From: an uncultured Acidobacteriota bacterium
GTDB lineage: Bacteria > Acidobacteriota > Vicinamibacteria > Vicinamibacterales > 2-12-FULL-66-21
Direction of reading: 5' to 3'
NCBI GenBank assembly: GCA_963755695.1
Contig: CAVWLB010000010.1
Location: 1,196,328 to 1,260,327 of the forward strand
Length of the DNA: 64,000 nt
Part shown: one piece after another, positions 5,232 to 61,805 of the stretch
Numbering within the stretch: position 1 is the stretch's first letter
Layout of the letters: each line of letters begins with the position of its first letter
Made by a program: the position numbers and the translations under genes
The notes under the pieces: model-generated
The model's database searches: none
What the model saw: the letters and a program-made list of their open reading frames with translations, nothing else
What the model was told of the DNA's origin: nothing

Positions 5232-7671
5232 CTATCGAAGCTGCGCGTCGACTTCGTCGAAATAGTCCTTCTTCACGAGCACCTCGCGCGGCTTGCCGCC
5301 AACCGCCGCCGAGACGAGCCCGTCCATCTCCATCATGTCCACCAGTCGCGCCGCACGGCTGAAGCCGATGCGGAGCCGCCGCTGCAGGTACGAGATCGAT
5401 GCCTGGCCGCTCGAGACCACGATGCGGGCAGCCTCGTCGTACAGCTCGTCCTTCTCGAACTCGATCGCTTCCTGCGCGCCCTTCTCCTCCGCGGTAATGG
5501 TGTTGTCGTAGGTCGGCTTTCCCTGTTTCCTGAGGAAACTCGCGAGCCGCGCCGATTCCTGTTCCGAGATGTACGGACCGTGCAGGCGCACGAACCGTGA
5601 CGACGCGGGAGGAAGGTACAACATGTCGCCGCGTCCAAGGAGCTGCTCGGCGCCGTTGCCGTCCAGGATGGTACGCGAGTCGATTTTCGACGACACGCGG
5701 AATGAAATGCGCGCCGGCAGGTTGGCCTTGATGAGACCGGTGATGACATCGACCGAGGGTCGCTGTGTGGCCAGTACCAGATGGATCCCGATCGCGCGCG
5801 CCATCTGCGCCAGCCGCGCAATCGACTCTTCGACCTCGTTGCCTGCCACCATCATCAGGTCCGCCAGCTCGTCGATCAGCACCACGATGAAGGGCAGGGG
5901 TTTGATCTCGTTGCCCTTGTCGTCGGTGACCACCTCGCCCTTCTTTTCCTCCTGCATCGCACGGACGTTGCGGTTGTACTGCTCGATGTTGCGCACGCCG
6001 AACGCCGCGAGCGTCTTGTAGCGTTCCTCCATCTCGCGCACCGCCCAGCGAAGCGCGTTCGAGGCGAGCTTCGGATCCATGACCACCGGCGTCAGAAGGT
6101 GAGGGATGTCCTCGTACATCCCGAGCTCGAGGCGCTTGGGATCCACCATGATGAACCGGACCTCATCGGGGGTCGCCCGCATCAGGATGCTGGTGATCAT
6201 CGCGTTGACACTGACCGACTTTCCGGCGCCGGTCGACCCGGCAATCAGCAGGTGCGGCATCGTCGCGAGATCGCTGACGAACGGCTCGCCGTGGATGGTC
6301 TTGCCCATGGCGAGGGTCAGCTTCGACGACGACCGGCGGTAGGCATCGGACTCGAGCAGCTCCCGCAGCGAGATTTGTTCGCGGTTCGGATTCGGAATCT
6401 GGATGCCGACGGTGGACTTCCCGGGAATGCGATCGATGATCACCGACTCGGCCTGCATCGCGAGACACAGGTCGTCGGCAAGACCGGTAATCTTGCTGTA
6501 CTTCACGCCGGCGTCGGGCTTGAACTCGTAAGTGGTGACAACCGGCCCCGGATGAATCTGGACGACCGTGCCTTCAACCGAGAACTCGCGACACTTGTCC
6601 TCCAGCAAGCGCGCTCCTTCCATCAACTCGCGCTCGTCGATCTTGCGTTCGCCCCGAGGCGCGTCGAGCAGCGCATTCGGCGGCAGCGCGAACGCGCCTT
6701 TCCGGCGCTCGGCGGGAGCCTTCTCGGGCTCGGACAGCGGCAAGGTTGGGGTCGAGGTCATGGGCGCCGGCCGTTTGATCGGCGGTGGTGGCGTCGGCTT
6801 CGACGAGGCAGCCTTGAGGGCAGCCGCAGCGGCCTCGACCATCGCCGCGGTCTTGGACTTCATAGGCGTCGGAGCCGAAGACGGAGTCGACGCCTCCTTC
6901 GCAGAGCTCGATGGATCTTTCGCGGATTTCAATGAGGCCGCCTTGGCCGCGACAAGCTCCGGTGTCAGTTCGGGAACCTCCTTGAACTCCTTCGACTCCT
7001 TCGTGTCCCTGGAATCCTTGCCCGGCCGCGTCAGGTGTTTCCTCATCACCTCCTGGCGCTGCTTTTCGCGGCGGCGCTCCTCGCGGCGCGCCTCGGCATT
7101 CGCCCTCATTGCCGCCCACCGATCGTGAGCGAGATGTCCGAGCACCCCGAACAGGCGGCCGAACGAGAACTGGGTCGAAAGAATGATCGCCAGGAAGAGC
7201 AACGTCAGGATCAGGATGATCGAGCCGGTGCGATTGAGATAATCCGCCAGCACCCCGGCGAGCCAATCACCAAGATATCCGCCGACACGAAACTCCTTGC
7301 CACTGACCTGGATCGTGCCAAAGGCGAGCGACAGGAAGGACGACACGCAGCCGAAGAGCAGCACCGCCCCTACCAGCTTCGTGTAGGCGGCGTCGACCGA
7401 TCGGCACCAGAAGTAATGCCAGCCGATCACCACGAAGACCAGCGGGACCAGGTACGCTGCAGTACCCAAGTACCTGGAAGGAGAGCTCGGCGAGAAAGGC
7501 GCCGACCCGTCCGGCGAAATTCGCCGCGGCCGGCGCCGCGCCGGTGTTGAAGAACCACACCGGGTCGGACGAACTGTAGCTGGCGAGCGCGATCACCCAG
7601 ATCAGCGCGCAGGCAAAGAGCGCCACGCCCGCGAACTCGCTCACGCGCCGCGACACGGTTCTGGAGGCCAC
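5232..7671 (-). CDS. ftsK: DNA translocase FtsK, reading frame broken once as sequenced (~7462-7474)
   Basis: The membrane N-terminus lies in ORF 7267..7671 (..FAGRVGAFLAELSFQVLG). It continues in another frame as ORF 5232..7469 (GTAAYLVPLVFVVIGW..). Walker A GSTGAGKS and a gamma-domain-like C-terminus (SISYLQRRLRIGFSRAARL) are present. Confidence 0.9.
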
Positions 7672-7672
7672 G

Positions 7673-9353
7673 TCAGATCTCCATGACCACCGGCAGCACG
7701 AGCGGCCGGAGACCCGAACGTTTGCGGAAGAAGCGCTGGAGGTCCACTCGAATCTTTTCCTTGATCAACCCTGGATCGGTCCGTTCTTCGACACTGGCGG
7801 TGTCGATCGCTGCCGCTACCAGCCCCGGCACTTCCTTGAGCAAACTCTCCGTTCGCAGGTCGAGCACGAAGCCACGCGTAATCACGTCCGGCGTCTCTTC
7901 CACCAGACCAGACTGCCGGCTGATTGCCACGACCGGAACGACCAGCCCGTCGCCGGCCAGGTGACGCCGATCGCGCAGCACCTCGTCGCCGACTTCGCCA
8001 CTGCGCGTCCCATCGATCAGAATCCGGCCCGCCGGCACCTTGTCCGCAACTCGGGCGCCGTCCGGGTCCACCCGAATCACGTCGCCGTTTTCCGCGAGCA
8101 CGACCTCGGTGCCTGGAGACACCCGTGCCGCCACTCGCGCATGTCGGGCGAGCTGACGGGTACTCTCCATGTATCGGCACGAAGTACTTCGGCCGTACCA
8201 GTGACAGCATGAGCTTGAGCTCTTCCTCAGAGCCGTGTCCCGAAACGTGGACATGCTTGATGCCCTCGTAGACTACATCGGCCCCCCGGCGGGCGATGTG
8301 GTTCATCACCCGGCCGATCGCCTTCTCGTTGCCCGGGATCTCGCGCGCTGAAAACACCACCACATCGTCACGCTCGAGCTTGACGTGACGATGGTCGTCA
8401 ATCGCAATCCGTGGAAGCGCGGCCTGCGGCTCACCTTGGGAACCGGTGCAGACACAAACCACGTCCTGGGACGGATAGTTCCTGACGTCACTGTCTCGTA
8501 TCTGCACGCCCGGCGGGATCCGCAAATATCCGAGCCTGTCGGCAATCTGCGAGTTCTCGACCACTCCCCGGCCGACGAACGCGACCCGCCGGTCGAACTG
8601 AAACGCCAGATCCAGCACGATCTGCATCCGGTACAGGCTGGAGGCGAACATCGCCACCACGATACGCCCCTGGGCGCTGGTGAAGATCTCCTCGAACCCG
8701 TCGATGACGTCGCGTTCGGAACCGCTGACCCCTTTCCGCTCAATGTTCGTGCTGTCGCCGAGCAGCACCAGCACCCCTTCGGCGCCGAGCTGCGCGAGAC
8801 GATGAAAGTCCACATGCTCGCCGTCGAGCGGGGTCTGATCGAACTTGAAATCCCCAGTGTGCAGCACGACTCCGGCCGGCGTGGTGATGGCAACCGCGAC
8901 GCAGTCGGGCATGCTGTGCGTAACGCGCAGGAACTCGATCGAGAAACTCCCTACCTGCACCCGATCGCGCGGACGCACGGCAGACAGGCGTGCGCGCGCG
9001 TCTTCGTCTTCGGCGAGCTTCGGCTCGACGAGCGCGAGCGTCAGCGGCGTCCCATAAACCGGTCCATCGACGTGCGGCAGCACGTGTGCGACCGCGCCGA
9101 TGTGATCCTCGTGGCCGTGCGTCAGAATCAGCGCCTGAATCTTGTACTGCTGGAGCGGACGCAGGTCCGGGATGATCAGGTCGACCCCGAGGAGCTCTGG
9201 CTCGGGAAACATCACGCCCGCGTCGATCAGGATGGCGGTCTCGCCGCAGGCGACCACCATCATGTTCATGCCGAACTCGCCCAGCCCCCCGAGCGGGATC
9301 AGCTCGAGCGGCGGCGTTTCGGAGACACCCGTCGATTCCGGACCGTTACGCAA
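7673..9353 (-). CDS. rnj: ribonuclease J, reading frame broken once as sequenced (~8155-8165)
   Basis: Metallo-beta-lactamase/beta-CASP motifs (LTHGHEDHIGAV; KYFVPIHGEY). After HGEY the sensible continuation (RQLARHARVAA..VVMEI) is in ORF 7673..8254. The 570-aa ORF tail is Arg/Gly-rich nonsense. TTG start. Confidence 0.9.
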
Positions 9354-9472
9354 ATGAACGAAGTCCCAGTCAAGAGGAACTAAATCTCATCGGACACGCT
9401 GCGGCGGGCGCCGCTAGGCGAGCGTATCCACCCGACCAGCGCTGGGACGATGGATCGGGAAAAATCGCTGAA

Positions 9473-9481
9473 ACTATAGCA
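9473..9481 (-). promoter_or_regulatory. extended -10 element TGCTATAGT upstream of rnj
   Basis: Minus strand reads cctgTGCTATAGTttc, ~115 nt upstream of the rnj start. The same nonamer recurs at 51759-51767. Confidence 0.35.
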
Positions 9482-9493
9482 CAGGTGGACTCG

Positions 9494-9532
9494 GGTTCTC
9501 CGGTTCTCCGGTTCTCCGGTTCTCCGGTTCTT
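9494..9532. repeat. tandem GGTTCTCC x ~4.5
   Basis: gggttctccggttctccggttctccggttctccggttc. Confidence 0.9.
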
Positions 9533-9556
9533 GTAGGGTGCGTCTTTAGACGCGCC
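9532..9556. repeat. REP-like hairpin element TGTAGGGTGCGTCTTTAGACGCGCC (copy 1 of 2)
   Basis: GC stem around a TTTA loop. Near-identical copy at 51774-51798 (tgtagggcgggtctttagatccgcc). Confidence 0.7.
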
Positions 9557-9647
9557 GTCGGCTTTCTAGGCAGGTGCCCTACAAACGATTACCCTAGACA
9601 CCTACGCGGCGCGCCTCTCAAGAGGCGCCCCACAGATAAGAGCAGGA

Positions 9648-10379
9648 TCAGCCTTTAAAATCGACCGACCTCGCCAGCCGCGCGAGCTCGCGCAGCTCCA
9701 GCGTCTCGGGACGCCGGCGCGCGTCGATTTCCGCCCGTGCCAGCGCCCTCGCCGGGTCGACGCCGAGCGGCTCGGCGAACGGACGCAAGGCATTGACCAA
9801 CGTCTTACGGCGCTGCATGAAGATGGTCCGGACCAGCCGCTCGAAACTGGCCGCATCTTCGATTGCAACCGTTGGCGGCCGGAAGACGAGTCGCACCACC
9901 GCAGATCGAACCTTCGGCATGGGCCGGAATGCGCCCGGCGGAAGCGTCAGCACTCGGGTGACGTCGGCGGAGAGCCGGGTGAGGATGCCCAGCACTCCGT
10001 AATCGGCCGTCCCGACCGGCGCGGTTAACCGTTCCGCCACTTCCGCCTGCAGCATGATGGTCGCGTCCCGAATCGCCGCCGTTCGGCGGGCCGTTTCCAT
10101 CAACTTGAACAGGATCGGCGACGAGATGTTGTAAGGGAGGTTCCCGGCGACCCGCAGCGGTCCGCCGGCCGTCATCTCCGCGAGATCCATCGAGAGCACG
10201 TCGCCGACGATGACACGGGCGTTGGACGGCAGTGAAGGGGCCAGGCGGGCAGCAAGGTCGCGGTCGATTTCGACGGCCGTCAGCTCGCGCACCCGCGGCG
10301 CAAGTCTCGTCGTGATGATGCCGGGACCCGGGCCGATTTCCAGAAATCGGTCGTCAGGCCGAGGGGCAATCGCCTCCAC
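9648..10379 (-). CDS. rsmA: 16S rRNA (adenine1518/1519-N6)-dimethyltransferase RsmA/KsgA (true start probably upstream of 10379)
   Basis: SAM motif LEIGPGPGIITTRL and NLPYNISSPI. The conserved N-terminal KRFGQHFL lies in frame upstream (10380-10430) of the GTG used by the ORF track. Confidence 0.9.
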   Translation of the reverse strand: MEAIAPRPDDRFLEIGPGPGIITTRLAPRVRELTAVEIDRDLAARLAPSLPSNARVIVGDVLSMDLAEMTAGGPLRVAGNLPYNISSPILFKLMETARRTAAIRDATIMLQAEVAERLTAPVGTADYGVLGILTRLSADVTRVLTLPPGAFRPMPKVRSAVVRLVFRPPTVAIEDAASFERLVRTIFMQRRKTLVNALRPFAEPLGVDPARALARAEIDARRRPETLELRELARLARSVDFKG

Positions 10380-16009: not shown

Positions 16010-16072
16010 GGCTTCGGGCTTCGGGCTTCGGGCTCCGGGCTCCGGGCTCCAGGAGCCTGAAGCCTGAAGCCC
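16010..16072. repeat. heptamer arrays GGCTTCG x3, GGCTCCG x3 followed by the complementary GAAGCCT units
   Basis: ggcttcgggcttcgggcttcgggctccgggctccgggctccaggagcctgaagcctgaagccc; starts 3 nt after the stop at 16007. Confidence 0.85.
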
Positions 16073-18966: not shown

Positions 18967-19135
18967 GCGTCGAATCGAGGCCCGAGGTCCGAGGCCCGAG
19001 GTCCGAGGCCCGAGGTCCGAGGCCCGAGGTCCGAGGTCGATCCGAGGTCCGAGGCTCGAGATCCGAGATCCGAGGTCCGAGATCTGAGGTCCGAGGCTCG
19101 AGATCCGAGATCCGGGATCCGAGGTCCGAAAAGCA
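18967..19135. repeat. tandem heptamer array CCGAGGT/CCGAGGC/CCGAGAT, ~23 units, direct only
   Basis: ccgaggtccgaggcccgaggtccgaggc... begins 1 nt after the recG stop. Confidence 0.9.
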
Positions 19136-21465: not shown

Positions 21466-23439
21466 TGACGATCATCGTCAGCCGGTTGTCGGTCGCGATC
21501 GTTGCAGCCACGGTCACCGTCGCCGGTGCGGTATACGCTCAGCAGCCGCCCGATGCCATCAATCCGCCCGACAGCGTCGCCGCGGACGGCATTGCCCCAA
21601 TTCCCCGGAGCATCGTCGCGGAGGTCAGCCGGTACACGAACTTTCGACCGGCAACGTTCCAGGACTGGGATCCGAAGACGCGCCGCGTGCTGCTGACCAC
21701 CCGGTTCGGAGATACGAATCAACTTCATATCGCCGATCACCCGGGCGGGGCGCGTCACCAGATCACCTTTCTCGACGAGCCGGTGGCCGAAGGCACCTTC
21801 ACGCCGGCGGGCGACGCGATCATCTACCGCAGCGACGTCGGAGGCGGGGAGTTCTTTCAGTTCTATCACCTCGACCTGAAGACGCGCGTCAGCACGCTGC
21901 TGACCGACGGCAAATCACGAAACGAAGGACTCACCTGGTCGCGGAAGGGCGACCGCTTTGCCTACGCCTCGACCAGGCGCAACGGCCGGGACAACGACAT
22001 CTATGTCGCCGGTCCTGCCGATCCGGTTGCGCGCCATGTGCTGGCACTCGAGGGACAGGGCGCGTTCGACCCGCTGGACTGGTCGGCCGACGACCGGCGG
22101 CTCCTGGTCGAGGAATTCCTGTCGGTCGCCGAGAGCCGCCTGTGGGTCGTCGATCTGAATGGTGGTGCCAGGCAGCCGGTTGCGCCAAACCGCCGAGCCT
22201 CGGTACTCGGACGCCCAGTTCGCTGCTGACGGCACGTCGATCTACGCGGTCACCGACGACGAGTCGGAGTTCCTGCGGGTGGTCCGAATCGATCTCGCGA
22301 CAGGCGCGGCCACGCCGGTGTCGGCGCGGGTGAACTGGGACGTCGAAGCCGCGCGCCTGTCGGACGACGGGCGCACGCTGGCCTACATCACCAATGAAGA
22401 CGGGGTCTCCGTGCTTCACGTGCTGGACGTCGCCTCGGGAGCCGATCGCATCGCCAGCGATGTCCCCAAGGGAGTGATCGCCCGCCTGAAGTGGCACCCG
22501 AACAACGTGGATATCGGCTTCTCGTTGTCCTCCGCGCAGTCGGTGTCCGATGTCTATAGCGTCGACGCGAAGACACTTCGGGTCGAGAGGTGGACGCGCG
22601 GCGAGGGCGCGGTGGATCCGGCAACGTTCACCCAGCCAGAGCTGATTCACTGGAAGAGTTTCGACGGCCGGTCGATCTCCGGGTACCTGTATTCGCCACC
22701 GGCGAAGTTCGCTGGCAAGCACCCGGTCATCATCAACATCCACGGCGGCCCCGAAGGGCAGTCGCGACCGACGTTCATCAACCGGAACAATTACTACGTC
22801 GACGAGCTCGGGATCGCGATGATTTACCCGAACGTCCGCGGCTCGACCGGGTACGGCAAGTCATTTCTCGCGCTCGACAACGGCCTGAAACGTGAAGACT
22901 CGTACAAGGACATCAATGCGCTGTTCGACTGGATCGCGACGCGGCCCGATCTCGACGGGTCCCGGATCATGGTCACCGGCGGCAGCTACGGCGGATTCAT
23001 GACCCTGGCGATTGCGACGCACTACAACGACCGAATCGCCTGCTCTCTGTCGATTGTAGGGATCTCGAACCTGGTGACGTTCCTGGAGCGGACCGAGGCG
23101 TATCGACGCGATCTTCGCCGGGTAGAGTATGGGGACGAACGCGATCCGCAGGTGCGGGCGTTCATGGAACGAATCGCCGCGGTCAACAACGTGCGCAAAA
23201 TCACCAAGCCGCTGTTCGTCGTCTCGGGAAAAAACGATCCGCGCGTCCCGCTGAACGAGGGACAGCAGATGGTGACGGCCGCGCGTATGCAGCAGGCGCC
23301 GGTGTGGTACCTGGTCGGCAACGACGAAGGACACGGCTTTGCGAAGAAGAAGAACCAGGATTACCTGTTTTACGCGAGCATCGCCTTCGTCAAACAGTAC
23401 CTCCTCAAACAACCCCCGACCGACACCGCGCAACGGTAA
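21465..23439 (+). CDS. S9 family prolyl oligopeptidase with TolB-like propeller, frame broken once as sequenced (22159-22210)
   Basis: ORF 21465..22229 (..LWVVDLNGG) continues as ORF 22159..23439 (..YSDAQFAADGTSIY..). Nucleophile motif VTGGSYGG; C-terminal DEGHGF. Confidence 0.85.
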
Positions 23440-24829: not shown

Positions 24830-24837
24830 GAGGCTTC

Positions 24838-25500: not shown

Positions 25501-25557
25501 GTCGGACTGGCAGGACCATCTCTCGGAGGCTGGCCGCTCTTCAGCACGGGCATCCGG

Positions 25558-26679: not shown

Positions 26680-26685
26680 CTTACC

Positions 26686-28828: not shown

Positions 28829-28829
28829 A

Positions 28830-42276: not shown

Positions 42277-42282
42277 CCTCGA

Positions 42283-42326
42283 AATCACTAAATCACTAAA
42301 TCACAAATCACCAAATCACCAATTCA
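42283..42326. repeat. tandem AAATCACY x ~5 (reverse complement of the 30345-30390 unit)
   Basis: gaaatcactaaatcactaaatcacaaatcaccaaatcaccaattc. Confidence 0.85.
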
Positions 42327-43323
42327 ACTTCCGCTCTCCATCTTCTTCCACGCCGCGGCATAGGCGTCCACGTTCTCCTTGGTGACCACATCCACGCCCG
42401 AGTCGATGATTGGCGAGGCGGGATTCTTGCCGTGCTTGATGTCGTAGAGCAGCTGCACCGTCTCGCTGCCCCAGCCGAAGTACTTCTGGCCGAGAAGCAC
42501 CTGTACCTTGCCCTCGCGCAGGAGATCGAGCGCCGGCTGAATCGTGTCGAAGGAGATGACTTTGGTCTTCGACGGATCGACCGACGCGGTCGCGTTGCGC
42601 GTGAACACCGGCCAGCCACCGACCGAGAGCCAGGCGGCGAGATCGGGATAGCGCCGCGTGCCGGTGGCGATGATCTCGGCGCAGCGGACCGAGTCTTCCT
42701 TGATGTCGAAGACCTCGACGATCTGGATGCCGGGTGCCTTCGCGAGCGCATCCTTGACGCCGTCGAGCCGGCGCTGGAGATTGGTGGCGCCGACGCTGGT
42801 GATGATCGCGATCTTGCCCTTGCCGTCGAGCAGGCGGATGGCCTGCTCGCCGATGATTCGGCCCGACGCAAAGTCGTCGACGCCGTAGAAGGCAAAGCGC
42901 TTGGACTTCGGCGCGTCGGAGTCCCAGGTCACGACCGGAATGCCGGCGTCAACCGCACGGTTGATGGTTTCGGTCAGGAAGTCGCCGTTCAGCGAGGAGA
43001 TCGCGATGCCGTCGACGCGCTGGGTGATGTAGGACTCGAGGATCTTCCTTCTGCTTCAGCTGATCGGCGTTGGTCGGCGCATTCCAGAGGATGTCGACGT
43101 TGCCGAGCTCCTTCGCTTTCCGCTCGGCGCCGATCTTCGCGTAGTTGAAGACCGGAATGTCGAGCGCCTTGGGGATCACGGCGAACCGCAGCCGCTTCTC
43201 CCCGGCCGGTGCATTCGACGACTGCCCGCCGCGGCCACAGCCGGACACGGCCATCAGTACCATCAACGCCAGACCCAGGATTCTAGCGATTGGTCTTCCG
43301 ATTGGTCTTCGACCACAAATCAT
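42324..43323 (-). pseudogene. sugar ABC transporter substrate-binding protein (RbsB-like), frame broken near 43040
   Basis: Lipoprotein-like start MICGRRPIG..LMAVSGCG and ..RFAVIPKALDIPVFNYAKIGAE.. in one frame. The remainder is in ORF 42324..42932 (VVTWDSDAPKSKRFAFYGVDDF..). Confidence 0.8.
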
Positions 43324-44284
43324 GTTTGCCTCTTGAGCAGCAGTTGATCCATCACCACGATCACGATGACGACCAGGCCGACGATCAGGCGATCGTAGAA
43401 CGTCGCGCCCGGAATCTGCGGCAGCGCATTGCGCAGCACGCCGAAGATCAGCGTGCCGAGCACGGCGCCGAGCACCGACCCGCGGCCGCCCGCCAGGCTG
43501 GCGCCGCCGACGACCGCTGACGCGATGATATCCAGCTCGTAGCCGGTGGCAAGATCGGCCTTGCCCTGGCCCTGGACGAGCACCAGCACGACCCCTGATA
43601 CGCCCGGCGAGCAGGCCGGACAGCGCATAGACCGACGTCTTGATCCGGTTGACCGCGATGCCCGAGAACAGCGCCGCCGTCTCGTTGCCGCCGATCGAGA
43701 ACACCGCGCGTCCCCACTGGAAGGTGGTCATCAGCACCTGGAAGACGAGCGCGAGGACGATCATGACGATCGGCGCCACCCAGTCGGCGGGAAGGCCGAG
43801 CGGCCGCCAGCCGCCGAGCAGGCGGCTCGAGACGTCGAAGTATTGACCTTCGGTGATGATGAAGGCCGCGCCGCGCGTGATGCCCATCATGCCCAGCGTC
43901 GCGATGAACGGCGGCAGGCGCACGAGCACGATCAGCGCGGCGCTCAGCAGGCCCGACGCGAGCCCGACCAGGACGCCAAGCCATCATCGCTGCCGCCGAG
44001 CGACCAGCCCTCGCACGACGAATAGCTGCGATCCAACGACGCCGGCAAGCGCCATCACCGCGCCCGGCGCGAGGTCGATGCCGCCCGAGATGATGACGAT
44101 CGCCGCGCCAACCGCCGCGATGCCGTAGATCGCCGAGTACTTGAGGATCAGAAGCGCGTTTCCGCGCGTTCAGGAACGGGTGTGCCCGGCCGGCTTCCGG
44201 CCACAGCTACCAGGTGAAGAACAGCACTTCGAGCACGAGGATGACGACCGTGCTGAGCTCGCGGACTCCCAAGAGTTTCTTCAT
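43320..44284 (-). pseudogene. sugar ABC transporter permease (RbsC-like), multiply frame-broken
   Basis: Fragments [23 protein letters not shown] / PPFIATLGMMGITRGAAFIITEG / GGNETAALFSGIAVNRIK / GYELDIIASAVVGGASLAGGRGSVLGAVLG lie in different frames. ATGA overlaps at both ends. Confidence 0.8.
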
Positions 44285-45837
44285 GCGGCGGATGACCTCG
44301 TGAGTGGCCAGGTGCATGACGCTTTCCTCGGTCGCCGCCGTTCCGTCGATCGCTCCCTGGATCCGGCCTTCGCGCATGACGACGATGCGATCGGCGAGCG
44401 CGAGCACCTCCGGCAGATCGCTCGACGCAACCAGACAGCCGCGCCGCGCGCCGCCTCGCGACGGATGATCTCGTGAATTTCGAACTTGGCGCCGACGTCG
44501 ACTCCCTTGGTCGGTTCGTCGAGCAGGATCACCCGCGGCGAGGTCGCCAGCCACTTGGCGACGACGACCTTCTGCTGGTTGCCGCCGCTCAGGCTGTCGG
44601 GCGAGCGTCTCGACGCCGGCGGCCTTGATGCGCCACCGTGTCGACGAGCTCGCTGCGCCTCGCGGCGTTCGCGCGCGCGTCCGGACGAGGACGTCGCGCC
44701 GCACGGTGCGGTCGGGCAGCACGAGATTGTGACGGATGCGTCAGGTTGAAGAGCAGTCCCTGGCGTTGCCGCTCCTCGGGCACGAGCGCGATCCCGGCCG
44801 CGCGGCCGTCGCGCTGGCGATGCCGGGCGTACGAGCTGCGCCGTCGACGCGAATCGTTGCCGCCGTCGGCGCGTAAACAGCCCGAAGATCGTCTCGAGCA
44901 GCTCGGAACGTCCTGATCCGACCAGCCCGAAGAGCCCGACGATCTCGCCCGAATGGACGGTGAGCGACACGTCGCGAAAGCACGGCGCGCGCGTCAACCG
45001 CTGGAGGGCGAGCGGTGGGGTTCGACGAGCGGCGCCGAGACATCCACCGCGCGCGGCGGCAGATCGCGTCCGACCATCGATGCGCACGATGTGCGCAGCG
45101 TGACGCTGCGGCGGCGCGGACGGGTCTCGACGTGGGCGCCGTCGCGCAGCACGGTGATGCGATCGCACAGGCGGAACACTTCGGGCAGCCGGTGCGACAC
45201 GTAGAGCAGCGTACGCCTGCGCGCCTTCAGCTTCTCGCAGCACGGCGAACAGGTGGTCCGCTTCGGCGTCGGTCAGCGACGTCGTGGGCTCGTCGAGCAC
45301 CAGGATGCGGCACTCGAAGGCGAGCGCGCGCGCCACCTGCAGCAGCTGCCGATACGCGGCCGAGAGCGAGTCCGCCGGGGCGTCCGGGGAGATGGGCAGG
45401 TGCAGCTCGGCGAGGAGCGCCTGGGTCCGCTCGCGCATGCTCGCCGTGGCGCAGCCGTCCGAAGCGGTCGACAATCTCGCGTCCGGCGAAGATGTTGCCC
45501 GGTGACCGACAGATTCGGGAAGCACAGCATCTCCTGGTAGACCATGCCGATGCCGCGCTCGAGCGCGTCGCGCGGGCTGCCGAGGTGAAGCCGTTCGCCT
45601 CGCCAGAGGACCTCGCCCGCATCGGGCTGAACGATGCCGGCGAGAATCTTGAGCAGCGTGGACTTGCCGGCGCCGTTCTCGCCCACGAGCGCGTGCGCCT
45701 CCCCCTCGGCCGACCGCGAACGAGACGCCGCGCAGCGCCTGGACGGCGCCGAAGGACTTGCGGACGTTTTGAAATGCGAGGCCCGGCGGCGTGCATATCG
45801 CGGTGCATATTACGTGATCAGCGCGCGTCGCGGTCAT
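44281..45837 (-). pseudogene. sugar ABC transporter ATP-binding protein (two cassettes, RbsA-like), multiply frame-broken
   Basis: GENGAGKSTLLKILAG (ORF 45273..45686), ILVLDEPTTSLTD, GEIVGLFGLVGSGRSEL and [26 protein letters not shown] lie in alternating frames. Confidence 0.8.
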
Positions 45838-45881
45838 CGCTTACAATGCGCGCACATTTGTCCGGAATTGGAGCGCCCGAT

Positions 45882-47044
<1,163 letters not shown>

Positions 47045-47073: not shown

Positions 47074-49321
47074 ATGCCGATCCCGATCTCGCGGCGGGAC
47101 GCGCTTCGTGGCCTTGGGATGGCGACCGCATCGGTGCTGTTCTGCTCCGACGTGGAGGGCCAGTCCCGGCCGTTTCGTTACGCCAATCAGCCAGTCGACC
47201 TGACCCTCTCGACGGTCAGCGCACACGCGGTGCGGATCAGGATTGTTCCGCAGGGCTCCGAGCGCATCGCAGCGAACGAAGACGGGGCGCTCGTCGATTT
47301 CGCTGAACAACACCGGGCGATTTCGAACGGGTGGCTGGCGGCAGGTGCAATTCGCGTGTCCGTGGCTCGCGATCCGCTGACGATTCGCATCGCACGTTCG
47401 AGCGGAGAGCTCGCCCAGGAGCTCCGCGAGTCGCCGAACACCGGCGAGCTCGAGTTCAGCGTTGGCGACGCTCCGCTGCTTGGTTTGGGCGAAGGCGGAC
47501 CGCAATTCGATCGCCGCGGCTCGACCGACGCGATGCGCAGCGGACAGGACGGCTACCAACTGCGCACGCACGGCGGCCGCGTCCCGATCCAGTGGCTGGT
47601 CAGTACCGCCGGCTGGGGCCTTTTCATTCACCAGCCGATCGGCGCGCTCGATTTCACCGGCACTCGCGGCCGTCTGGCCTCGGCGTCGCCGCTGCCGGCC
47701 GACCTGTTCGTAATCGTATCCGCCGACCCGCGCGTGATCATGCGCGAGTACGCACGCATCACGGGGCTCGCGGCAATGCCGCCGCTGTGGACATTCGGAT
47801 ATCAGCAATCGCACCGTACGCTGGCCGGACCCGACGAAGTACTGGCGGTGGCGCGCACGATGCGCGCAAAGAAGCTGCCGTGCGACGCTCTGATATACCT
47901 TGGCACCGATTTCACGCCGTCGGGGTGGAACACGCACAATGGCGAGTTCACCTGGAACCAAGCGAACTTCCCGGACCCGAAGCAGACGATCGACGATCTC
48001 CACGGACTGCATTTCAAGGTCGTGCTGCACGCGGTCATCGAAGGCCGGCACCTGACGGGTACGGTGAAGGATGAGTGTTCCGCGCCAGAGCCAAGCGGGA
48101 GGACGCCCGACGGTCACTGGCCCGACCAACGCCGCGTCGGCTGCTACTGGCCGTATCACAAGAACGGGTTCGATCTCGGCATCGACGGCTGGTGGCCGGA
48201 TCAAGGCGACGGCCTCGATCCGGCCTCGCGGCTGAATCGCATCCGGATGTATTGGGAGGGCCCGCAATTGTGGCGGCCGAATGAGCGGCCGTATGCCCTT
48301 CACCGTAACGGCTACGCCGGCATGGCGCGCTACGGAGCCTTTCTGTGGTCGGGCGACGTGTATTCCACGTGGGAGACACTCCGGACGCATGTCCCGGTCG
48401 CCATCAACACGAGCTTGAGCGGCATTCCGTATTGGGGTACGGATATCGGCGGCTTCGTGCCCACGCCGGAGCTCACCGGCGAGCTCTACGTACGCTGGTT
48501 CCAGTTCGGCGCCTTCTGTCCGCTGTTCCGGGCTCACGGCAGAACCTGGCACCTGCGGCTCCCGTGGGGATGGAACACTGGGGAGCTCGGCCCGAACGAA
48601 GTCTCGTCATATCGCGACGCCGGCAATCCGCCCGAGTCCGAACTGCACAACGCGCAGGTCGAACCGATCTGCCGCAAGTATCTCGAGCTGCGCTACCGTC
48701 TAATGCCGTATCTCTACTCGTGCATGAGGCAGACGTCGTTGACCGGCCTTCCGATCATCCGCGCCTTGTGGCTGCATCACAGTGACGATCCCATGGCGGT
48801 GGCACGCGGCGACGAGTACTCTGTGGGGAAGAGACATCCTCGTCGCCCCGGTCACCGAGAAGGGCGCATCCACGCGGCGCGTGTACCTGCCGCGTGGCTG
48901 GTGGTACGACTTCTGGACCAACGAACGCGTAAACGGCGGACGCGAGCTCGAACGCGCCGTCGATCTCGAGACGATGCCTCTGTATGTCCGGGCCGGCGCG
49001 ATCGTGCCCATGGGATCCGTCAAGCAGTACACAGCCGAACAGACCGACGATCCGCTGACGGTCGTCGTCTATCCGGGGGCGGACGGCGCGTTCGATCTGT
49101 TCGAGGATGACGGCCGCTCGTTCGACTACCAGCACGGCGCATGGATGGGGCTCGAGCTGCATTGGACGGATGCGGCACGCCGATTGTCGGTTTCACTCGC
49201 CCGCGGTTCACGGATGCTGCCGCCGGTCCCCCGCGAGCTGCAGATCCGAATGGCGGGCGGCGCCGGGGTCCAGACGATCCGGTTCGACGGCCGATCGCAG
49301 TCCCTCTTGCTTCGGGACTGA
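47074..49321 (+). CDS. glycoside hydrolase family 31, frame broken once as sequenced (~48814-48824)
   Basis: Tat-like signal (MPIPISRRDALRGLG). GH31 blocks (GIDGWWPDQGDG; WFQFGAFCPLFRAHG). After ..ARGDEY the continuation LWGRDILVAPVTEKG.. is in ORF 48782..49321. Confidence 0.85.
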
Positions 49322-49379: not shown

Positions 49380-51750
49380 TCACCGTCCCGGCTGCACGGC
49401 GCGGACTTCGACCAGCCCTCCGGTGCGCGCGGTGCCCTGCGGCTGGAACCGTACCGTGACCCTCGATTTGCCGCGCGTCAGCCCCTCGGGAACCTGGTAT
49501 TCCTTGTCGAGCAGTTCGGTCGGGTGGTATTCGAGGCTCTCGGTGGCGATCTTCTCGCCGTCGACGAGGACGTCGAATACGCGCTGCTGACCTTCGCTGC
49601 CGCGATACGTACAGACGAGGGTGAGCGGCTTATCTGGCTGGACCTTCAGCTCGTAGCTGAGGAAGCCGTCGTGAGCGTCGCGCCAGCGCCGTCCTTCCAC
49701 GAACCCCTCGTCCGCTCCTTCGCTCTTGAACGCATGCGCCCGCTCGCTCGCATCGTCGTTCACGTTGACGGTATCGATGGTTCGTCCCTCGATGTCCTTG
49801 CGGCGGGCCGCTGCACGGGCGAGGTCTGCCTTGTACTTGTCGTATTCCGCCCGCGTGTAAATCGTCCAGTAGACCGTGTAACGCGGATCCATGGTCTTGT
49901 AGAGCGGCATCAGGGTGACGTCGTGGGGCTCGGCGAGACCGTCGGTCTGGAACGTCAAGGGCTTGCCCGCAACCGGCTTCACACGATCGAGCACCTGCTG
50001 CGGCGTCGAGGCGATGAATACCGGAATCGGTATCGACGTCAGACGCCCGAGCGGCGGCGCGCTCGGACCGTAGCGGCGGACCGCGTCGAGGCCGGCGGTG
50101 CCGAGATCACCGGCGAGGACGACTGGACCGTACATCAGCGCCTGAACGTGCGGATCATCGGGAAGAGACTCGAGGTGGAGCGACATCGGCAACTTGATCT
50201 GCATGCTGTCGCCCGTCTTCCACTCGCGCGTCACGTCGATGTATTGGCCGGGTTTCGCTGCGGCAGTTTCCTGCGATTTGCCGTTGACGGTCAGCGTCAT
50301 CCCTGACGTCGCCCACGATGGATAGCGCACTCTGACCGCGAGGCGCAGGGGCTGGTCCACCGTGAAGGTGAGGGAAGTCGAGTCTCCTTCCGGGAATTTC
50401 GTCAGCTGCCGGACCTTCACTCCCATTTCCTTCCAGGTCAGCTCGGAGGGGACGAACAAATTCACGTAGAGCGCGGCCGCATCATGAAAGTAAATCGTGT
50501 CGTTGTACTTGGCATGGTTCTCCATGCCGGTACCGACGCAGCACCAGAACGAATCGTTGGCCGTCGAGAATGTCTTGAACGCGCCAGGCTTGAGCGGGCA
50601 GTAATAGAGCACGCCGCCGGTTTTGGGATCCTGCGACGCGAGAATGTGGTTCAGCAGCGCGCGCTCGTAGTAGTCCATCATGTCGGCCGACGGCGACCAC
50701 GCGAACAGGTGGCGCGTCAGCTTCAGCATGTTGTAGGTGTTGCAGGTCTCGGGGCCCGACGTCCCGAGATGGTGCGACGTTTCCTCCTCAGGAAAGAACG
50801 ACTCGTCGTCGCTGTGGCCGCCGATCACGAACGATCGGTGATGGACGACCCGGCTCCAGAAGAAGGTGGCGATGTCGCGATAGCGGGGATCGCCGGTCAG
50901 CTCGTACTCGCGGGCGGCGCCGATGATCTTGGGAATCTGGGTGTTCGCATGCACGTTGTCGAGCGGATCGACGCCACGAGCGAGCGGATCGAGGATGCGT
51001 CGGTGGTCGAATTTCTTCGCGGTCTCGAGATACTTCGGCTCGCCGGTGACGGCGTAGAGGTTGGCGAGCACTTCGTTCATCCCGCCGAACTCCGTGTCGA
51101 GCGCCTTCTGTTGCTGTTCGTCGGTCAGGCGGCCGACGCGGAACTTGACCCAGTCCGCCTGCTTCTTCAAAACGTCGAGCGCCTGCTGGTTTCCGGTCAG
51201 CAGGTTCGCGTCGAGCAGCCCCGCCATGATCTTGTGAATCGTGTAGTACGGCGCCCAGACCCGCCGGCGCGAGTCGACGCGGTCGAAGAGTTCTTCAGGA
51301 AAGGCAGAAAGGTAGCCCGGATTGAACGTCTTCGCCTCGGCGGCCTGCACCTTCGCGAGCTCCGCGACGAGGCTGTCGGCGCGTGCCTTGAACCTCGTGT
51401 CGCCGGTGCTCGCGTACATGATCGAAACCGCGGACAGGTAGTGGCCGACCGAGTGCCCGCGCAGTTCGACGTCCGGCGCCTCCCACCCGCCGAGCGGCTG
51501 CGCGGACGAGGGAAGGCCGGCGGTGACGCGGAAGTTGTGGAGCAGGCGATCCTGGTCGAGGCTGAGGAGATATTCCTCATCGCGGATCATCGCGTCGCGG
51601 TAGGGACCGTCGAGGAGCCGGACGTCCTCGAGTTTGAACGGTACTGCCTTCGATGGGACTTTGTCGGGCACCGACGCCTTGGTCCAGGTACTGCCGACCT
51701 GCGGCCGCCGCGACGCAAAACACCGCCACAGTCAGCGTCAAGATCCTCAT
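49380..51750 (-). CDS. GH127-family (DUF1680; possibly GH146) glycoside hydrolase, frame broken in the signal peptide as sequenced (~51675-51720)
   Basis: 763-aa ORF (..ELRGHSVGHYLSAVS..). An ATG at 51750 encodes MRILTLTVAVFCVAAAA in a different frame from ..GSTWTKASVPDKVPSK. Confidence 0.8.
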
Positions 51751-53735: not shown

Positions 53736-56700
53736 TATTTCTCGTCCAGCTTTCGGCCCGCGTCAAGGTTGTCGAAATTCAAGAGCGTGTTGAACACGAG
53801 GAAATAGCTGCCCTGCGTCTCCCCCCGCCAGATCGGATTGTTCGAGAACATGACGACGTGTCCCTTGTCGACGGGGACGTCGATCACCATCGGGCGTTGA
53901 GCGAGATCCGCGCCGTTATCGAGAAGTCCCGAGACGAGGAGATCCCGCGCGTCCCCGTAGCGCAGGACGACGCGCGGACGGAAGCGCGGGGGAATGATGT
54001 TGGTCGCATTGCGGCGCTGCTCGTCCTGAATCGGCGCAAACTGCCAGGCCTCTGCACGCGGCTCGTCGGGAAGGGGAGCGGTTGGACTGAATCCCTGCAC
54101 CTGATCCGGGTCGTCGGGTGTCCCACGCCCAGTGGCGCGACGCTGGGCCTCATCGCCGCCGCGGCGTCCGCCGCCGGCGCCGCCAACGCGAGCACTCACA
54201 CCGAAGATCGGCGGATTGTCCGCATAGATCGAGAGGTCGTCGCCGTAGCCGTAGGCGATCGGGCTGGCCGCGTCCACCGTCTTCGATCGAAGCACCGAGC
54301 CGACGACCTTCAAGCGCTGCGACTCGGTGGTCGAGACGCCCGGTGCGAAGCCGAACTGCTGCGCGAACTCCGCCGTGTCGTCGACCACGATCAACACGCC
54401 GCCATCGGAGACGAACTTCTGCAGGTGGATCAACCCCTCCCAGCCCATGCCGGGACGGATGTCGTCGGTCGAATCCTCCTTGCCGATATTCGGCGTCAGT
54501 TCCGTTGTCTTCCACGGGATCGGATTGCCGTACATCGGCATGCCCGTGATGATCTGTTGCGCGGATGCGCGTCCGACGGGCGGGAACAGGATGACGTCGT
54601 ACTTCGATTTCAGATCCCCCTCCTGCCTGAGCGCCTGCGTGCTGATATAGGTGAAGGGCACGCCTCGAAGGTCGAGTGTTTGCCGCCACCAGCCTTCGTC
54701 CTGGGTGTTGATCCACGTGTGGAGGAGGGCAACCCGCGGCGTGCGGCCGGGATGCGTTGTCACGTTCGGAGCGGACGCAAGCGCGGTCACCTTGATACCG
54801 AGATCCGACGCGGCCTTCCGGAGATCGTCCGAGCTGACCCCCTGCACGATGAACGACCCGCGGCCGAATTTCTGTCCGCCGGCCTCGAATCCCTCTTCGG
54901 CGATGTCGAACTTCGCGTCCTTCAAGCGATAGCGCAGCGTGATCAGCGCCGGCTCGCTGTTGTGGTTAATGGCGAATACGGAGCCGCTGCCGGAGACACC
55001 ACCGCCGGCCTTGACCTCTCCCCTGACGGCTTCAACCTTGGCATCGAGCACCTTCACGTCGGTCACTCGCGTGACCTTCACGTTGAACAGCTCGGGGAAC
55101 GTCCACCCGGTGTCGTCGTAGGGCTGGCGCTGCGGGTCGTCGGGCGCCCAGGTACCTGATAATCGAGCAGCGCGTCGGCGATCCGGCTGAACGGCTGGTC
55201 CATCCGAACGATGAAGGAACCGGCCGGAAAGGTGCGACTCTCCGACGGCGACGCGGCGGTGCGATCGTTCTTCTGGCCTTCCTGCGAGTCCTGGCCAGCC
55301 TGCGAATCTCCCCCTCCATTCGAGCCGCCACGGTCCGCCGACGTCTCAGTCGTGTTGCTCGGACGTTTGGGCCGGCGCGGACCCGGCACCGAAACCGTGA
55401 ACGGCTGCGTCGCACGCGAAATCTCGACCTTTTGCATCTGCAGAATGCGCAGCAAATCCGCCTGTGCGCCTGGCCGCGGATCGTCGCCGGCAAACACATA
55501 CGCCGCCGGCCCTTCGGTCTGCGGCTTGAGGATCGATCGCTTGCCCTTCAAATAGAAATTCTTGAGAAAGTACTGCGCGTTGTCCGCGAACTGATTCAGC
55601 GATACGAGCAGACCGGTCTCCTGGTAATTGTTGTTGTTGCGTTGTGACCACTTCGTCTTCGGTAAGGGAGGGTTCTGCCGGTACCAGGTGCGTGAGGTCT
55701 GCGACGGGGGAAGCGTCCGCTCGAGCGTGTCGGCGCCGCCATTCCCGAAGGTTTCGTAGAGCCGGCTGATGCCGTTGTGCATCGCGGCAATGAACATCAG
55801 ATAACCGGGGGACCAGGTATCGAAGGTACCGTGAGTGAACACGCCCGGCATGCCGAACTTGGTCATCTCGTTGACGTTGTGCCAGCCGATCATCTGCCAT
55901 TCGCTGGCGAGAATGGGATCGATCCAGGCGTTGTACGGGCCGTCACCGACCGTGTTGTCGTACAGATAGGGCACCGACTCGTGGAGATCGTGGATCACTT
56001 GCGCGTGCCAGTCGACGTAGGTGTTCAGCACGTTGCGCGTCAGCGCCAGCGTGAGTCCCATCGCGTCACGATTGTTGTCGTGCGCGACGTACTTGCCCCA
56101 ATAGAGCGTGCCGGGCCAGTTCTTGTCAGGGTTGGCCAGGTGCCAGCGATACACGTCCACGTGTCGATCGCGTCCGTCCACTTCCACGATCGGCGTGACG
56201 AGGGTGATGACCTTGTTGCGGATCTTCTGGATATAAGGGCTTTCGTCAACCGCCAGCCGATATACCAGCTCCATCAGCGCGGTCGGGGAGCCGGTTTCAG
56301 GAGAATGGATCGTCCCGGTAATGTAATAGACCGGGGTCGTCGTGGCCACGATCCGGTCCGCTTCATCGTCTTTCATCTTGATGGCGCGCGGATCCGCCAG
56401 CTTCTCGAGATTGGCGCGGTTGGCCTCGAGTTTCGCGAGATTGGCTTCCGACGACACCGCGACCGCGATCATCTCGCGTCCTTCTTCCGTTTTGCCGATG
56501 GAGAAGACCTTGACCCGCGGCGTTGCGTTCTCGACCATCCGCATGTACTGGTAGACCTCGCGCGAGTACGGAAGGATGCCGGGCGCCCCGGCCACATCCT
56601 TGAGAACCGCCATTGGCGTCGGGACGGTTTTCGACGCCGGCAGATAGTCGACCAGCGGCGACGTGAAGTACGGTGCGGTCGTGTACTCCTTCATCCTGGC

Positions 56701-57398: not shown

Positions 57399-57836
57399 CT
57401 ACGACGGCCCGGCTTCGCCGAGCCGTAGATCGCCATTCGTGCCTTCAGGAAAGTGGTTCACGATGCGGCGTACGCCGCTCCTCATGGTCTCTTCTCCAAA
57501 GTTCATCAGTAGCCCGAGCGGGCAGCCAGTGAGAGTTAGATATGTCCTCACCTGACGAAGGTGCACTGGCGAAATCGTTTGTAACGCCTTCACCTCAATC
57601 ACAACCACGCCTTCAACGATAAAATCGGCTACGTACGCCCGCGGTACCCAGAGCTCCTCATAGTGCAGGTCGAGTTCAACGTTGGCCTCGAACTGCAAGC
57701 CTCGCCTCCGCATCTCGTACGCGAGGCAAGGGGAGTAAGTCGATTCGAAGCACCCAGGGCCGAACGCCTTGTGGAGTGCAATGGCGCCGAGGACGATCTC
57801 ACGAGCGATACGATTGATTTCTTGTTCCGTAGCCAC
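57399..57836 (-). CDS. GxxExxY-family protein (PD-(D/E)XK-like)
   Basis: GTG start near 57836 (VATEQEINRIAREIV..). GxxExxY motif GCFESTY and core FIVEGVVVIEVKALQ..HLRQVRTYLTLTG. The C-terminal ~15 aa read into a flanking repeat. The ORF-track N-terminal extension to 57992 is discounted. Confidence 0.75.
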   Translation of the reverse strand: MATEQEINRIAREIVLGAIALHKAFGPGCFESTYSPCLAYEMRRRGLQFEANVELDLHYEELWVPRAYVADFIVEGVVVIEVKALQTISPVHLRQVRTYLTLTGCPLGLLMNFGEETMRSGVRRIVNHFPEGTNGDLRLGEAGPS

Positions 57837-58013
57837 GTTGCCCCTGAAGCAGGCGACGTGCCACCGTGCTTTGCAAGGGCTTGCGCCGGATCCAGGCCAA
57901 TGTGTTGCAAGAATCGCAAACATCGTTGAAATGAAGTGTTGAACTAATTGCGTTTGCGCCCTTGCGCCATTGCGTGAGACAAAGGTAACCACGCGGGCAC
58001 ATGGTGTTTATGA

Positions 58014-59856: not shown

Positions 59857-59965
59857 GGCTCAGGGCTCAACGCTCAGGGCTCATGCTTGCTCAAGGCCAT
59901 TAAGCCAAAAGAAGGCTCGAGACTCAGAGCTCAGAGACCATAAGCCGCCCTGAGCCCTGAGCCAT
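59857..59965. repeat. GCTCAGGG arrays with complementary CCCTGAGC units (imperfect hairpin)
   Basis: ggctcagggctcaacgctcagggctcatg .. gccgccctgagccctgagcc. Confidence 0.7.
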
Positions 59966-61805
59966 TCATCTGTCCAGATGAAACGGCACACTCGTCACGA
60001 CCACCCGCGGACGGAACAGCAGTGCGCCCTTGATCAGGAGCGCTCGTTGATTGTGGAGCAGGTGCTGCCACCACCTTGCGGGCACGAACTCGGGCAACAC
60101 GACGGTGACGTAGTCCTGCGGGTTGGAGCGTTGAAGATCGTCGATGTACTCGAGCAGTGGCTCCATCAGCGATCGATAGGGCGACTCGAGCACGTCCAGG
60201 CGGGTGCCGTTGCCCCATCGCTGCCACTCGAGACGTACCTTCTCGGTCGCCGCGGGATCGGTATCGACGAATATGGCCCGTACGTCTGCCGACAGGCTGC
60301 GGGCGTAAGCGATGGCCTGCAACACCGCGCGGTGAACGCCGCCGATCGGCACCAGCACGGTACTATGTTGCGGCCCTTCTCCCTTCCAGCCGCGCAGTGA
60401 CAGTTGCGAGGCGACATGGTAGTAGTGCGCGCGGGTCGCCCTGAACACGATCACCAACACCGGAATCAGCAGCAGGATGATCCATGCGCCCTCGAGCACT
60501 TTGGTCACGGTGACGATGACCAGGACAACCGCAGTGGCCATCGCGCCAATTCCGTTCACGAATGCGCTGGTTCGCCAGCCCGGCCCTCGCAGCCGCCACC
60601 AATGGAGCACCATTCCGCTCTGCGACAGCGTGAACGAGATGAAGACCCCGATCATGTAGAGCGGGATCAGCGCGTGCGTATCGCCGCCAAAGGCAATCAG
60701 CAGCGTGCCGGCGAAGATGCTCAGCGCGAAGATGCCGTTCGAAAACGCCAGCCGGTCACCCTGATTCGCGAACTGACGCGGCAGATACCCATCGCGCGCC
60801 ACGATCGAAGCGAGCCGCGGGAAATCGGCGTACGCGGTGTTTGCCGCCAGCACCAGGATCAGCATCGTCGCGAGCTGCACGAGGAAGTATGGGATGCCGC
60901 GTCCGCCGAACGTGCCGCGCGCGATCTGCGACACGACGGTCTCGGTCTCCGATGGGACGACCCGGTAGGCGTGCGCCAGGACGCGTAATGCCAACGAACA
61001 TGGTGATCGCGAGCGCCGCCATCGTCATCAGCGTGTGTGCGGCATTCTTGGCCTCCGGCTGACGAAATGCCGGGACGCCGTTCGAGACGGCCTCGACGCC
61101 GGTCATCGCCGTGCAGCCATTGGAAAACGCGGTCAGCAGGGCGAACGTCGCAAGGACACTCCCGCCAATTGGAACCGGACTCTGGGGCTCGACTGGGTGG
61201 ATCGTGCCGGTCACGTAGCGCCACGCGCCGACGCCAACCAGCAAAAGGATCATGAGGATGAAGAAATACGTCGGAATCGAAAAGATGCGGCCGGACTCGC
61301 GGATTCCGCGCAGGTTGCCGACCGCCAGCACGGCCAGGAAGACCAGCGACAGCTCGACGCGATTGACATGCAGCGTCGGAAACGCAGACGTGACCGCCGC
61401 TACACCTGCCGCGATACTGACCGCGACCGTCAGCGTGTAGTCGATCAACAGCGCCGCAGCGGCGACCAGGGCGGCGCCGCTTCCGAGATTGTCCTTGGAA
61501 ACGATATAGGCGCCTCCGCCGCTGGGATAGGCATAGATCGTCTGGCGGTACGAGAAGGCGACAATCGCGAGGAGCGCCGCGATCAGCAGCGCAATGGGCA
61601 TGGCATGCGACAAGACCGCCAGCCCACCGATCACCAGGACCCGAAGGATTTCTTCTGTCGCGTACGCCACCGACGACAGCGCATCGGAAGACAGGACGGC
61701 CAGACCGGTGACCTTAGAGAGTCGTTCGTGATGAGCGAGGTGAGTGGGAATTGGGCGTCCGAGGAGGACCCGCTTCAACGCCGAATATGCGCCACCTTCG
61801 GGCAC
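59966..61805 (-). CDS. APC-family amino acid permease with C-terminal cytoplasmic domain, frame broken once as sequenced (~60979-60990)
   Basis: ORF 60756..61805 reads sensibly to ..AALAITMFVGIT. The continuation VLAHAYRVVPSETETVVSQIARG.. is ORF 59966..60994. The break lies in gacgcgtaat with no GTAC nearby. Confidence 0.8.

Follow-up and report, generated by a model that had tools for sequence, protein, structure and literature searches.

Frame breaks at GTAC in a Vicinamibacterales contig: likely long-read consensus errors at a putatively modified motif

The question raised by this locus is whether a set of genes that are each split by a single frame change, ftsK and rnj amongst them, are broken in the organism or only in its deposited sequence, and why the breaks should lie at the tetranucleotide GTAC. 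The locus is a stretch of 64,000 nucleotides, referred to here as the window, from an uncultured bacterium of the order Vicinamibacterales in the Acidobacteriota (assembly GCA_963755695.1, contig CAVWLB010000010.1, positions 1,196,328 to 1,260,327 of the forward strand). The extra bases that break the frames lie at GTAC, are mostly missing from near-identical contigs of the same strain, are absent from short-read relatives and recur in metagenome-assembled genomes (MAGs) sequenced by Nanopore. It is likely that they are long-read consensus errors at GTAC in a Vicinamibacterales assembly, triggered by a putative modification of the motif. The two parts of this explanation differ in strength: the frame breaks are, with high confidence, artefacts that are absent from the organism, and a base modification of GTAC as their cause is held with moderate confidence.

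Frame breaks and the GTAC motif

The breaks were located with a frame path that is blind to GTAC, a seven-state Viterbi model (six frames and non-coding) using codon log-odds trained on the long open reading frames (ORFs) of the window. Outside a heavily disturbed stretch at 39.2–47.0 kb, which is discussed in the last section, the path makes nine same-strand switches beyond ordinary gene junctions, at approximately 7460, 8174, 22158, 31266, 32734, 48831, 51689, 55155 and 60983. These are exactly the nine genes that an earlier, sequence-only reading of the window had described as split outside 39.3–46.9 kb. Pfam matches assign seven of them to FtsK, RNase J, an S9 peptidase, TPR with Peptidase_MA_2, DUF7790, GH31 and Peptidase_M14. 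The GH127-like gene and the APC permease, the latter a label carried over from the sequence-only reading, have no such Pfam basis and were recognised as genes through alignment to relatives.

DNA alignment to relatives allowed the position of each break to be pinned (Table 1). At eight of the nine loci the breaks are single-base insertions 0–1 nt from a GTAC, with one insertion on each side of the motif in the M14 gene, and only the APC gene lacks the motif at its break, which is the division that had been proposed from the letters. Positions within 2 nt of a GTAC (<=2 nt) make up 2.25% of the coding positions outside 39.2–47.0 kb, as against eight of the nine broken loci (P = 6e-13) and 11 of the 12 indel events (P = 9e-18). 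The errors are concentrated at one short motif, far above chance, and the association claimed earlier holds. The motif itself is scarcer than the one copy per 200–300 bp that had been estimated, since the window (64.2% G+C) contains 169 GTAC sites, or one per 379 bp; ftsK, credited with about ten unbroken copies, contains 12.

When the events are written on the strand that places them 3' of GTAC, most are an added C, two are an added T and one is a deletion. The inserted base usually copies the motif's own terminal C (G on the opposite strand). The suggestion that the errors fall in G/C runs survives to the extent that the insertion tends to double this terminal C or G, but no pre-existing run is needed. 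Insertions are found at either edge of the palindrome, and at both edges in the M14 gene, as is expected if one lesion is read from both strands. At most of the sites the motif carries an in-frame Tyr codon (xxG TAC), a consequence of codon bias, as 96 of the 140 coding GTACs (69%) have this phase.

Table 1. Positions of frame breaks and related features in the window. Square brackets mark a base that is extra in the window.
Feature	Position	Strand	Description
ftsK break	7460-7465	-	additional base (C at 7460 when read on the + strand), 1 nt away from GTAC 7462-7465
rnj (RNase J) break	8157-8163	-	additional G in GGG 8157-8159, adjoining GTAC 8160-8163
S9 peptidase break	22201-22208	+	additional G immediately 5' of GTAC 22203-22206
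DUF4159 gene, compensated pair	30146-30165	+	+C after GTAC 30146-30149; -1 directly after GTAC 30161-30164
TPR/Peptidase_MA_2 break	31263-31267	+	additional C after GTAC 31263-31266, GCGTAC[C]GAC
DUF7790 break	32733-32737	+	additional G 5' of GTAC 32734-32737, GAGCA[G]GTACCTG
Heavily frame-shifted sugar-utilisation cluster	39211-47041	.	frame path hops about 25 times
GH31 break	48816-48820	+	additional T after GTAC 48816-48819, GAGTAC[T]CTG
GH127-like gene, N-terminal break	51687-51692	-	additional C following GTAC (coding strand CAGTAC[C]TGG)
M14 carboxypeptidase break	55151-55156	-	insertions on both sides of GTAC 55152-55155, CAG[G]TAC[C]TGG
APC permease break	60979-60990	-	additional G, ACGC[G]TCC; nearest GTAC 152 nt away

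The alignments show what each site looks like without the extra base. In ftsK the window has GGGTAC[T]GCA where 25 relatives have GGNTAC-GCN, and on the coding strand of rnj it has GAGTAC[C]CGT where 25/25 relatives have GAGTA-CCG. The insertion in the S9 peptidase gene, CCTC[G]GTACTCGG, is the sole coding indel across a 7-kb alignment to the JGI contig L081 (93.5% nucleotide identity), and the repaired protein of 657 aa is 96% identical to the intact protein P0001. For the TPR gene the relative L138 has GCGTA-CGACGG; after repair the protein is 94% identical to the intact 356-aa protein P0241, and a single Peptidase_MA_2 match covers the break. The DUF7790 gene, described earlier as a hypothetical gene with the site cagGGTACctg, in fact reads CAGGTACCTG, and has GAGCA-GTACCTG as its counterpart in L083, L084 and L138. 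The corresponding sequences are GACGAGTAC-CTGTGGGG for GH31 (L086 and L089) and CAGTA-CTGGAC for the GH127-like gene (L085, L086 and L087). In the M14 gene, which retains a Pfam Peptidase_M14 match in its upstream part, the break had been taken for a five-nucleotide GTACC unit and turns out to be two flanking insertions: L085 reads TATCAGTACTGGGCG (its sequence is also given as CAGTACTGG), two bases shorter, and dropping one base per side leaves zero mismatches.

Frame analysis does not capture every event. A gene for a DUF4159 protein carries a compensated pair of indels, at 30150 and 30165, which was found through alignment to L138 and which garbles five codons before the frame is regained, with the ORF remaining unbroken. 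All four coding indels in this 5.8-kb alignment are at GTACs. As the pair is invisible to frame analysis, errors at GTAC are under-counted by that approach.

The APC gene, for which L098 has CACGC-TCC, represents a second, motif-independent class of error with the same type of G/C insertion as the 39–47 kb stretch. The hexamer ACGCGT at this break, which the insertion itself creates in the window, is also present at three frameshift junctions in Nanopore MAGs of relatives (L041 at 17061; L073 at 15887 and 8756). ACGCGT may be another motif at which errors arise, or its repeated presence may be coincidental, the DNA being GC-rich.

Near-identical contigs and the sequencing platform

Exact-protein look-ups with the proteins of the window led to near-identical contigs of the same strain. 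Two, named in the Flye style (contig_N), belong to the ENA assembly ERZ25039579: L143 matches window positions 3621–24235 at 99.6% identity and L142 matches 24752–36686 at 99.3%. Run ERR11571146 supplies two more, the short Logan contigs L144 and L145. In the ENA contigs the extra bases that the window has in ftsK, rnj and the TPR gene are absent. L143 reads GGGTACTCAGCG in ftsK, in frame and lacking the extra base, and encodes an intact RNase J of 559 aa; L142 lacks the TPR insertion but has an extra C of its own at 31313. The S9 and GH127 sites are discordant, with a different pair of errors in L143 at the S9 GTAC (CCT-GGTACT-GG) and, in the GH127-like gene of L145 (99.4% identical), an in-frame variant CCAGG-ACCGCC that differs exactly at GTAC. 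The DUF7790 insertion is shared between the window and L142, which also has CT>TC just past that GTAC, and in the DUF4159 gene L142 has substitutions inside and adjoining the same GTAC.

The near-identical contigs have errors of this kind where the window has none. L143 contains its own insertion of a C at a GTAC at 15872, where the window is intact, and L142 has a T inserted 5' of the GTAC at 36205 that breaks a gene intact in the window. Over 3.1 kb, L145 differs from the window by one indel, sited at the GH127 GTAC. Such disagreements can be counted over 38 kb of near-identical alignment: of 21 small indels, 8 are no more than 2 nt from a GTAC (0.41 expected, P = 4e-9), and of 121 substitutions, 14 are (2.4 expected, P = 1e-7). 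That two assemblies of one strain disagree mostly at GTAC, and do so differently, points to a systematic problem at the level of the reads and not to mutation.

The sequencing platform can be compared across the order. The FtsK ORF, when searched against GTDB representative genomes, matches solely MAGs of Vicinamibacterales/Acidobacteriota, the top one at 84% amino acid identity, and the gene order of window positions 1–19 kb is kept among these relatives. Many of them are Microflora Danica (MFD) MAGs, which are Nanopore-only assemblies made with R10.4.1 chemistry, Flye and one round of Medaka 1.8.0 (PMC12313526). Thirteen window proteins, with FtsK and RNase J repaired, were compared by tblastn with 80 related Vicinamibacterales ftsK loci, comprising 26 MFD Nanopore loci (306 kb tested) and 54 others (495 kb) that were classed as short-read by their contig names. 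The MFD loci contain 30 frameshifts and the others none. All 27 of the frameshifts that could be located against non-MFD relatives are insertions, and seven of these (26%) adjoin a GTAC, compared with 0.6 expected (P = 2e-6); they fall in seven different MAGs (L008, L017, L029, L032, L034, L051 and L053). The rnj insertion of the window, identical in kind and site (GAGTAC[C]CGG), recurs in one of these, the distant MAG L017, and in no intermediate relative.

The window differs from these MAGs in its rates. Frameshifts affect 8 of its 140 coding GTACs (5.7%) as against 7 of 645 (1.1%) in the MFD relatives, a fivefold difference (Fisher P = 0.002), whereas frameshifts away from GTAC are rarer in the window (0.02 versus 0.075 per kb). 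A higher rate at GTAC over a lower background indicates a factor specific to this strain and a few relatives, and not generally low quality or a universal pipeline bias. The errors at GTAC are stochastic between assemblies and confined to long-read assemblies. The assembly of the window is most likely Nanopore-only, of the Flye plus one round of Medaka type, and ftsK, rnj and the other broken genes are almost certainly intact in the organism. The near-identical contigs and the restriction of frameshifts to Nanopore MAGs lend strong support to the earlier preference for a systematic consensus or base-calling error over pseudogenes or recoding.

Two further features were seen in the comparison with the near-identical contigs. 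Between 50816 and 51087 there are ten differences in a row from L145 and the window always has G; at 50816, 50917 and 51006 all outgroups side with L145, codon positions 1 and 2 included. These are likely to be substitution errors towards G in the window. In L143 (16583–20606), FtsK and the product of the AMIN/Amidase_3 gene downstream of it are called as one fused protein of 1403 aa. An extra G that L143 alone has at window position 5816 may have caused the fusion, which would then be a further case of error-driven mis-annotation in these assemblies.

The origin of the errors at GTAC

On the preferred explanation, reads of this strain are miscalled systematically at the edges of the palindrome, the usual miscall being one extra pyrimidine past the terminal C (an extra purine before the G on the opposite strand) and the rarer one a deletion or substitution. 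With modest coverage the wrong call would take over the consensus at a few percent of GTACs, and within genes each such case would appear as a frameshift. The trigger is proposed to be a modification of GTAC on both strands that perturbs base-calling. It may be 4-methylcytosine (4mC), 5-methylcytosine (5mC) or 6-methyladenine (6mA), placed by a methyltransferase similar to that of RsaI, CviQI or HpyAXII and foreign to the training of base-caller and polisher. It is reasonable to regard such a modification as a plausible cause, and the active GTAC methyltransferase that the sequence-only reading had implied for the organism is likewise plausible. A modification outside the 6mA/4mC/5mC repertoire, or an unusually bulky one, that base-callers were never trained on and that gives an atypical, insertion-type signature at the motif edge is a long shot; if true, the errors at GTAC would be the earliest trace of a hitherto undescribed system of DNA modification, in a soil lineage that is abundant and uncultured.

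Type II restriction-modification systems that recognise GTAC include RsaI, CviQI and HpyAXII of Helicobacter pylori. A system of this type would supply GTAC-specific methylation, but the window is without such a gene and GTAC is not avoided. By analogy it may be offered as a lead to the source of the modification, not as a finding. Frameshifts in Nanopore-only MAGs are classically caused by homopolymer length. The window resembles such frameshift-rich MAGs in that its genes are split by single-base indels and the affected relatives are exclusively Nanopore-only MAGs. Unlike the classic case, the hot spot is a palindromic tetranucleotide and only one homopolymer difference exists among the near-identical contigs, at 27517 (G7 versus G6, L142 alignment).

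Motif-specific Nanopore errors mediated by modification have been documented, mostly as mismatches, for example at GCAGC and GCTGG motifs in Listeria (PMC10687267), and on CycloneSEQ the rates of substitution and insertion were higher for native than for amplified DNA, with R10 more variable (bioRxiv 10.64898/2026.01.14.699587). The errors described here are similar to the documented ones in affecting one short motif, surviving read consensus, depending on lineage and being absent from short-read data. They differ in being predominantly single-base insertions at the motif edge, with some substitutions, where the others are mismatches inside the motif; moreover, in contrast to the Listeria case, the motif is GTAC and its modification is putative. 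A literature search found no paper linking GTAC to Nanopore insertion errors and no report of GTAC methylation in Acidobacteriota.

Several points weigh against consensus errors at a modified GTAC. GTAC avoidance, a supportive sign of a restriction system, was not found in the window or in 1.37 Mb of relatives (observed/expected 0.92 and 0.91, respectively, which is unremarkable among palindromic tetramers). Neither Pfam nor neighbour annotations revealed a DNA methyltransferase in the 64-kb window, the only methyltransferases being those for rRNA (RrnaAD, Cons_hypoth95). Only about 6% of GTACs are struck, which requires that something else be at work as well, for example coverage, the flanking sequence or partial modification. 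In the literature, substitutions predominate among Nanopore errors linked to modification (PMC10687267), and in the window insertions do. The DUF7790 insertion shared by the window and L142 would fit a systematic error but equally a real mutation, and the status of ERZ25039579 as a Nanopore assembly is deduced from its contig names and error profile.

The explanation that comes nearest, although it is given clearly less weight than a modification, is a bias inherent in the base-caller or polisher, tied to the motif through the k-mers that surround GTAC in GC-rich DNA and independent of any modification. It is still a live rival because there is no methyltransferase in the window and GTAC is not avoided; moreover, GTAC-adjacent insertions are seen in seven different Nanopore MAGs of related species, and the published signature of modified motifs is usually of another type than insertions (PMC10687267). 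What counts against such a bias is that the rate per GTAC is fivefold that of relatives from the same kind of pipeline, over a lower background, and that a bias at GTAC in general should be well known for so widely used a platform; no report of one is known to us, and literature searches found none. Improbable by comparison is a long-read chemistry other than Nanopore, PacBio continuous long reads for instance, where a modified template would slow the polymerase and raise insertion calls. Errors dominated by insertions and a 39–47 kb stretch that resembles poorly polished, insertion-rich sequence would suit it, but the Nanopore-only MFD MAGs have the same insertion-only profile and GTAC hot spot, and the contigs of the same strain are named in the Flye style.

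The remaining alternatives place the breaks, or their decoding, in the cell. Real mutations at a GTAC hot spot, for instance through cutting by a GTAC-specific nuclease and sloppy repair, would make the genes pseudogenes, and the insertions are indeed present in the deposited sequence, one of them (DUF7790) also in a second contig of the strain. This is nevertheless very unlikely, given that the near-identical contigs are free of the insertions in ftsK, rnj and the TPR gene and show other changes at the GTACs of the S9 and GH127 genes, that it would mean the loss of core genes such as ftsK and rnj and breaks in about 15% of all genes outside 39.2–47.0 kb, that the rnj insertion reappears in L017 and in no intermediate relative, and that 495 kb of short-read relatives contain zero frameshifts. 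Real pseudogenes were rejected since, of the disabling changes covered by independent sequence of the same lineage, those in ftsK, rnj and the TPR gene are absent there, those in the S9 and GH127-like genes are discordant and only that in DUF7790 is present. Programmed recoding, in which the ribosome passes over a single base on one side of a TAC (Tyr) codon, is the least probable of all, even with five sites that have an in-frame TAC followed by exactly one extra base. The in-frame Tyr codon was dropped as a sign of recoding, because the xxG|TAC phase is already that of 69% of coding GTACs. The extra base precedes TAC in the S9 and DUF7790 genes, two skips would be needed in the M14 gene, and no common stimulatory context was seen, no systematic search for one having been made. 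A programmed +1 frameshift was discarded on finding the aligned orthologues in frame at every site, some 99%-identical ones among them, and no consistent side of TAC.

With consensus errors at GTAC as the preferred explanation, the biological weight of the finding is small, as it is an artefact of a known kind, and its value is practical, for the curation of Nanopore-only soil MAGs. About 6% of the GTACs in genes of the window are frameshifted, which on extrapolation would amount to hundreds of genes falsely split across the genome. Other Nanopore-only soil MAGs of the order bear this signature too, with effects on gene calls, pseudogene counts and completeness estimates. Motif-aware or short-read polishing would clear most of the errors at GTAC, and the error pattern provides a cheap, sequence-only hint of GTAC modification in this lineage.

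A gene for a small protein of the PD-(D/E)XK nuclease family (PDDEXK_3, E = 1.5e-33) is located at 57399–57992 on the minus strand, by itself within 1.3 kb assigned to the non-coding state by the frame path. No methyltransferase partner was found near it.

The 39.2–47.0 kb stretch and intergenic repeats

The stretch excluded from the counts above is a sugar-utilisation cluster that contains genes for an araB-like FGGY kinase, an araD-like epimerase carrying a HAD domain, a sugar ABC transporter (binding protein, permease and ATPase) and an aldose 1-epimerase. Alignment of 3.6 kb to L083 and L088 shows approximately 28 single-base insertions and 4 deletions, none of them at GTAC, and an insertion density of about one per 100 nt. 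In around 20 cases the inserted base is a C on the plus strand, irrespective of the strand of the gene, and this asymmetry suggests a consensus drawn from few reads of one orientation. Coverage that was low or confined to one strand, over a sugar-utilisation island that varies between strains, is the probable cause. This second class of error is separate from the errors at GTAC and shares with them the same root, an imperfect long-read consensus.

The FGGY gene (39211–40875) has 15 insertions and a single deletion, so arranged that each group of them adds up to a shift of 0 mod 3, with the result that an ORF of 554 aa remains open although about one third of it is out-of-frame garbage. In-frame intervals exceed out-of-frame ones, but in other respects the spacing is Poisson-like (coefficient of variation about 1, by hand calculation). 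No such grouping is found in the other genes of the stretch, and the restoration of frame in the FGGY gene is probably due to chance.

The surroundings of the cluster vary in gene content within the order. In L083 an alpha-L-arabinofuranosidase gene (8620–10206) lies between the GH127 gene and the FGGY kinase gene, and is missing from the window (39150–39211) and from L139 and L140; in L088 the GH31 gene is absent. A misassembly at the left edge of the stretch was considered and dropped, as L139 and L140 share the arrangement of the window, which indicates natural variation and gives no signal of a chimera.

Between genes, the window also contains tandem arrays of short units (for example GGACCTCGAACCTC, GATTGGAGA, CCGAGGT and GGCTTCG) at 30497–30630, 26729–26782, 19023–19100, 16010–16030 and 31761–31790. 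The copy number of these arrays differs between the window, its near-identical sister contigs and the relatives.

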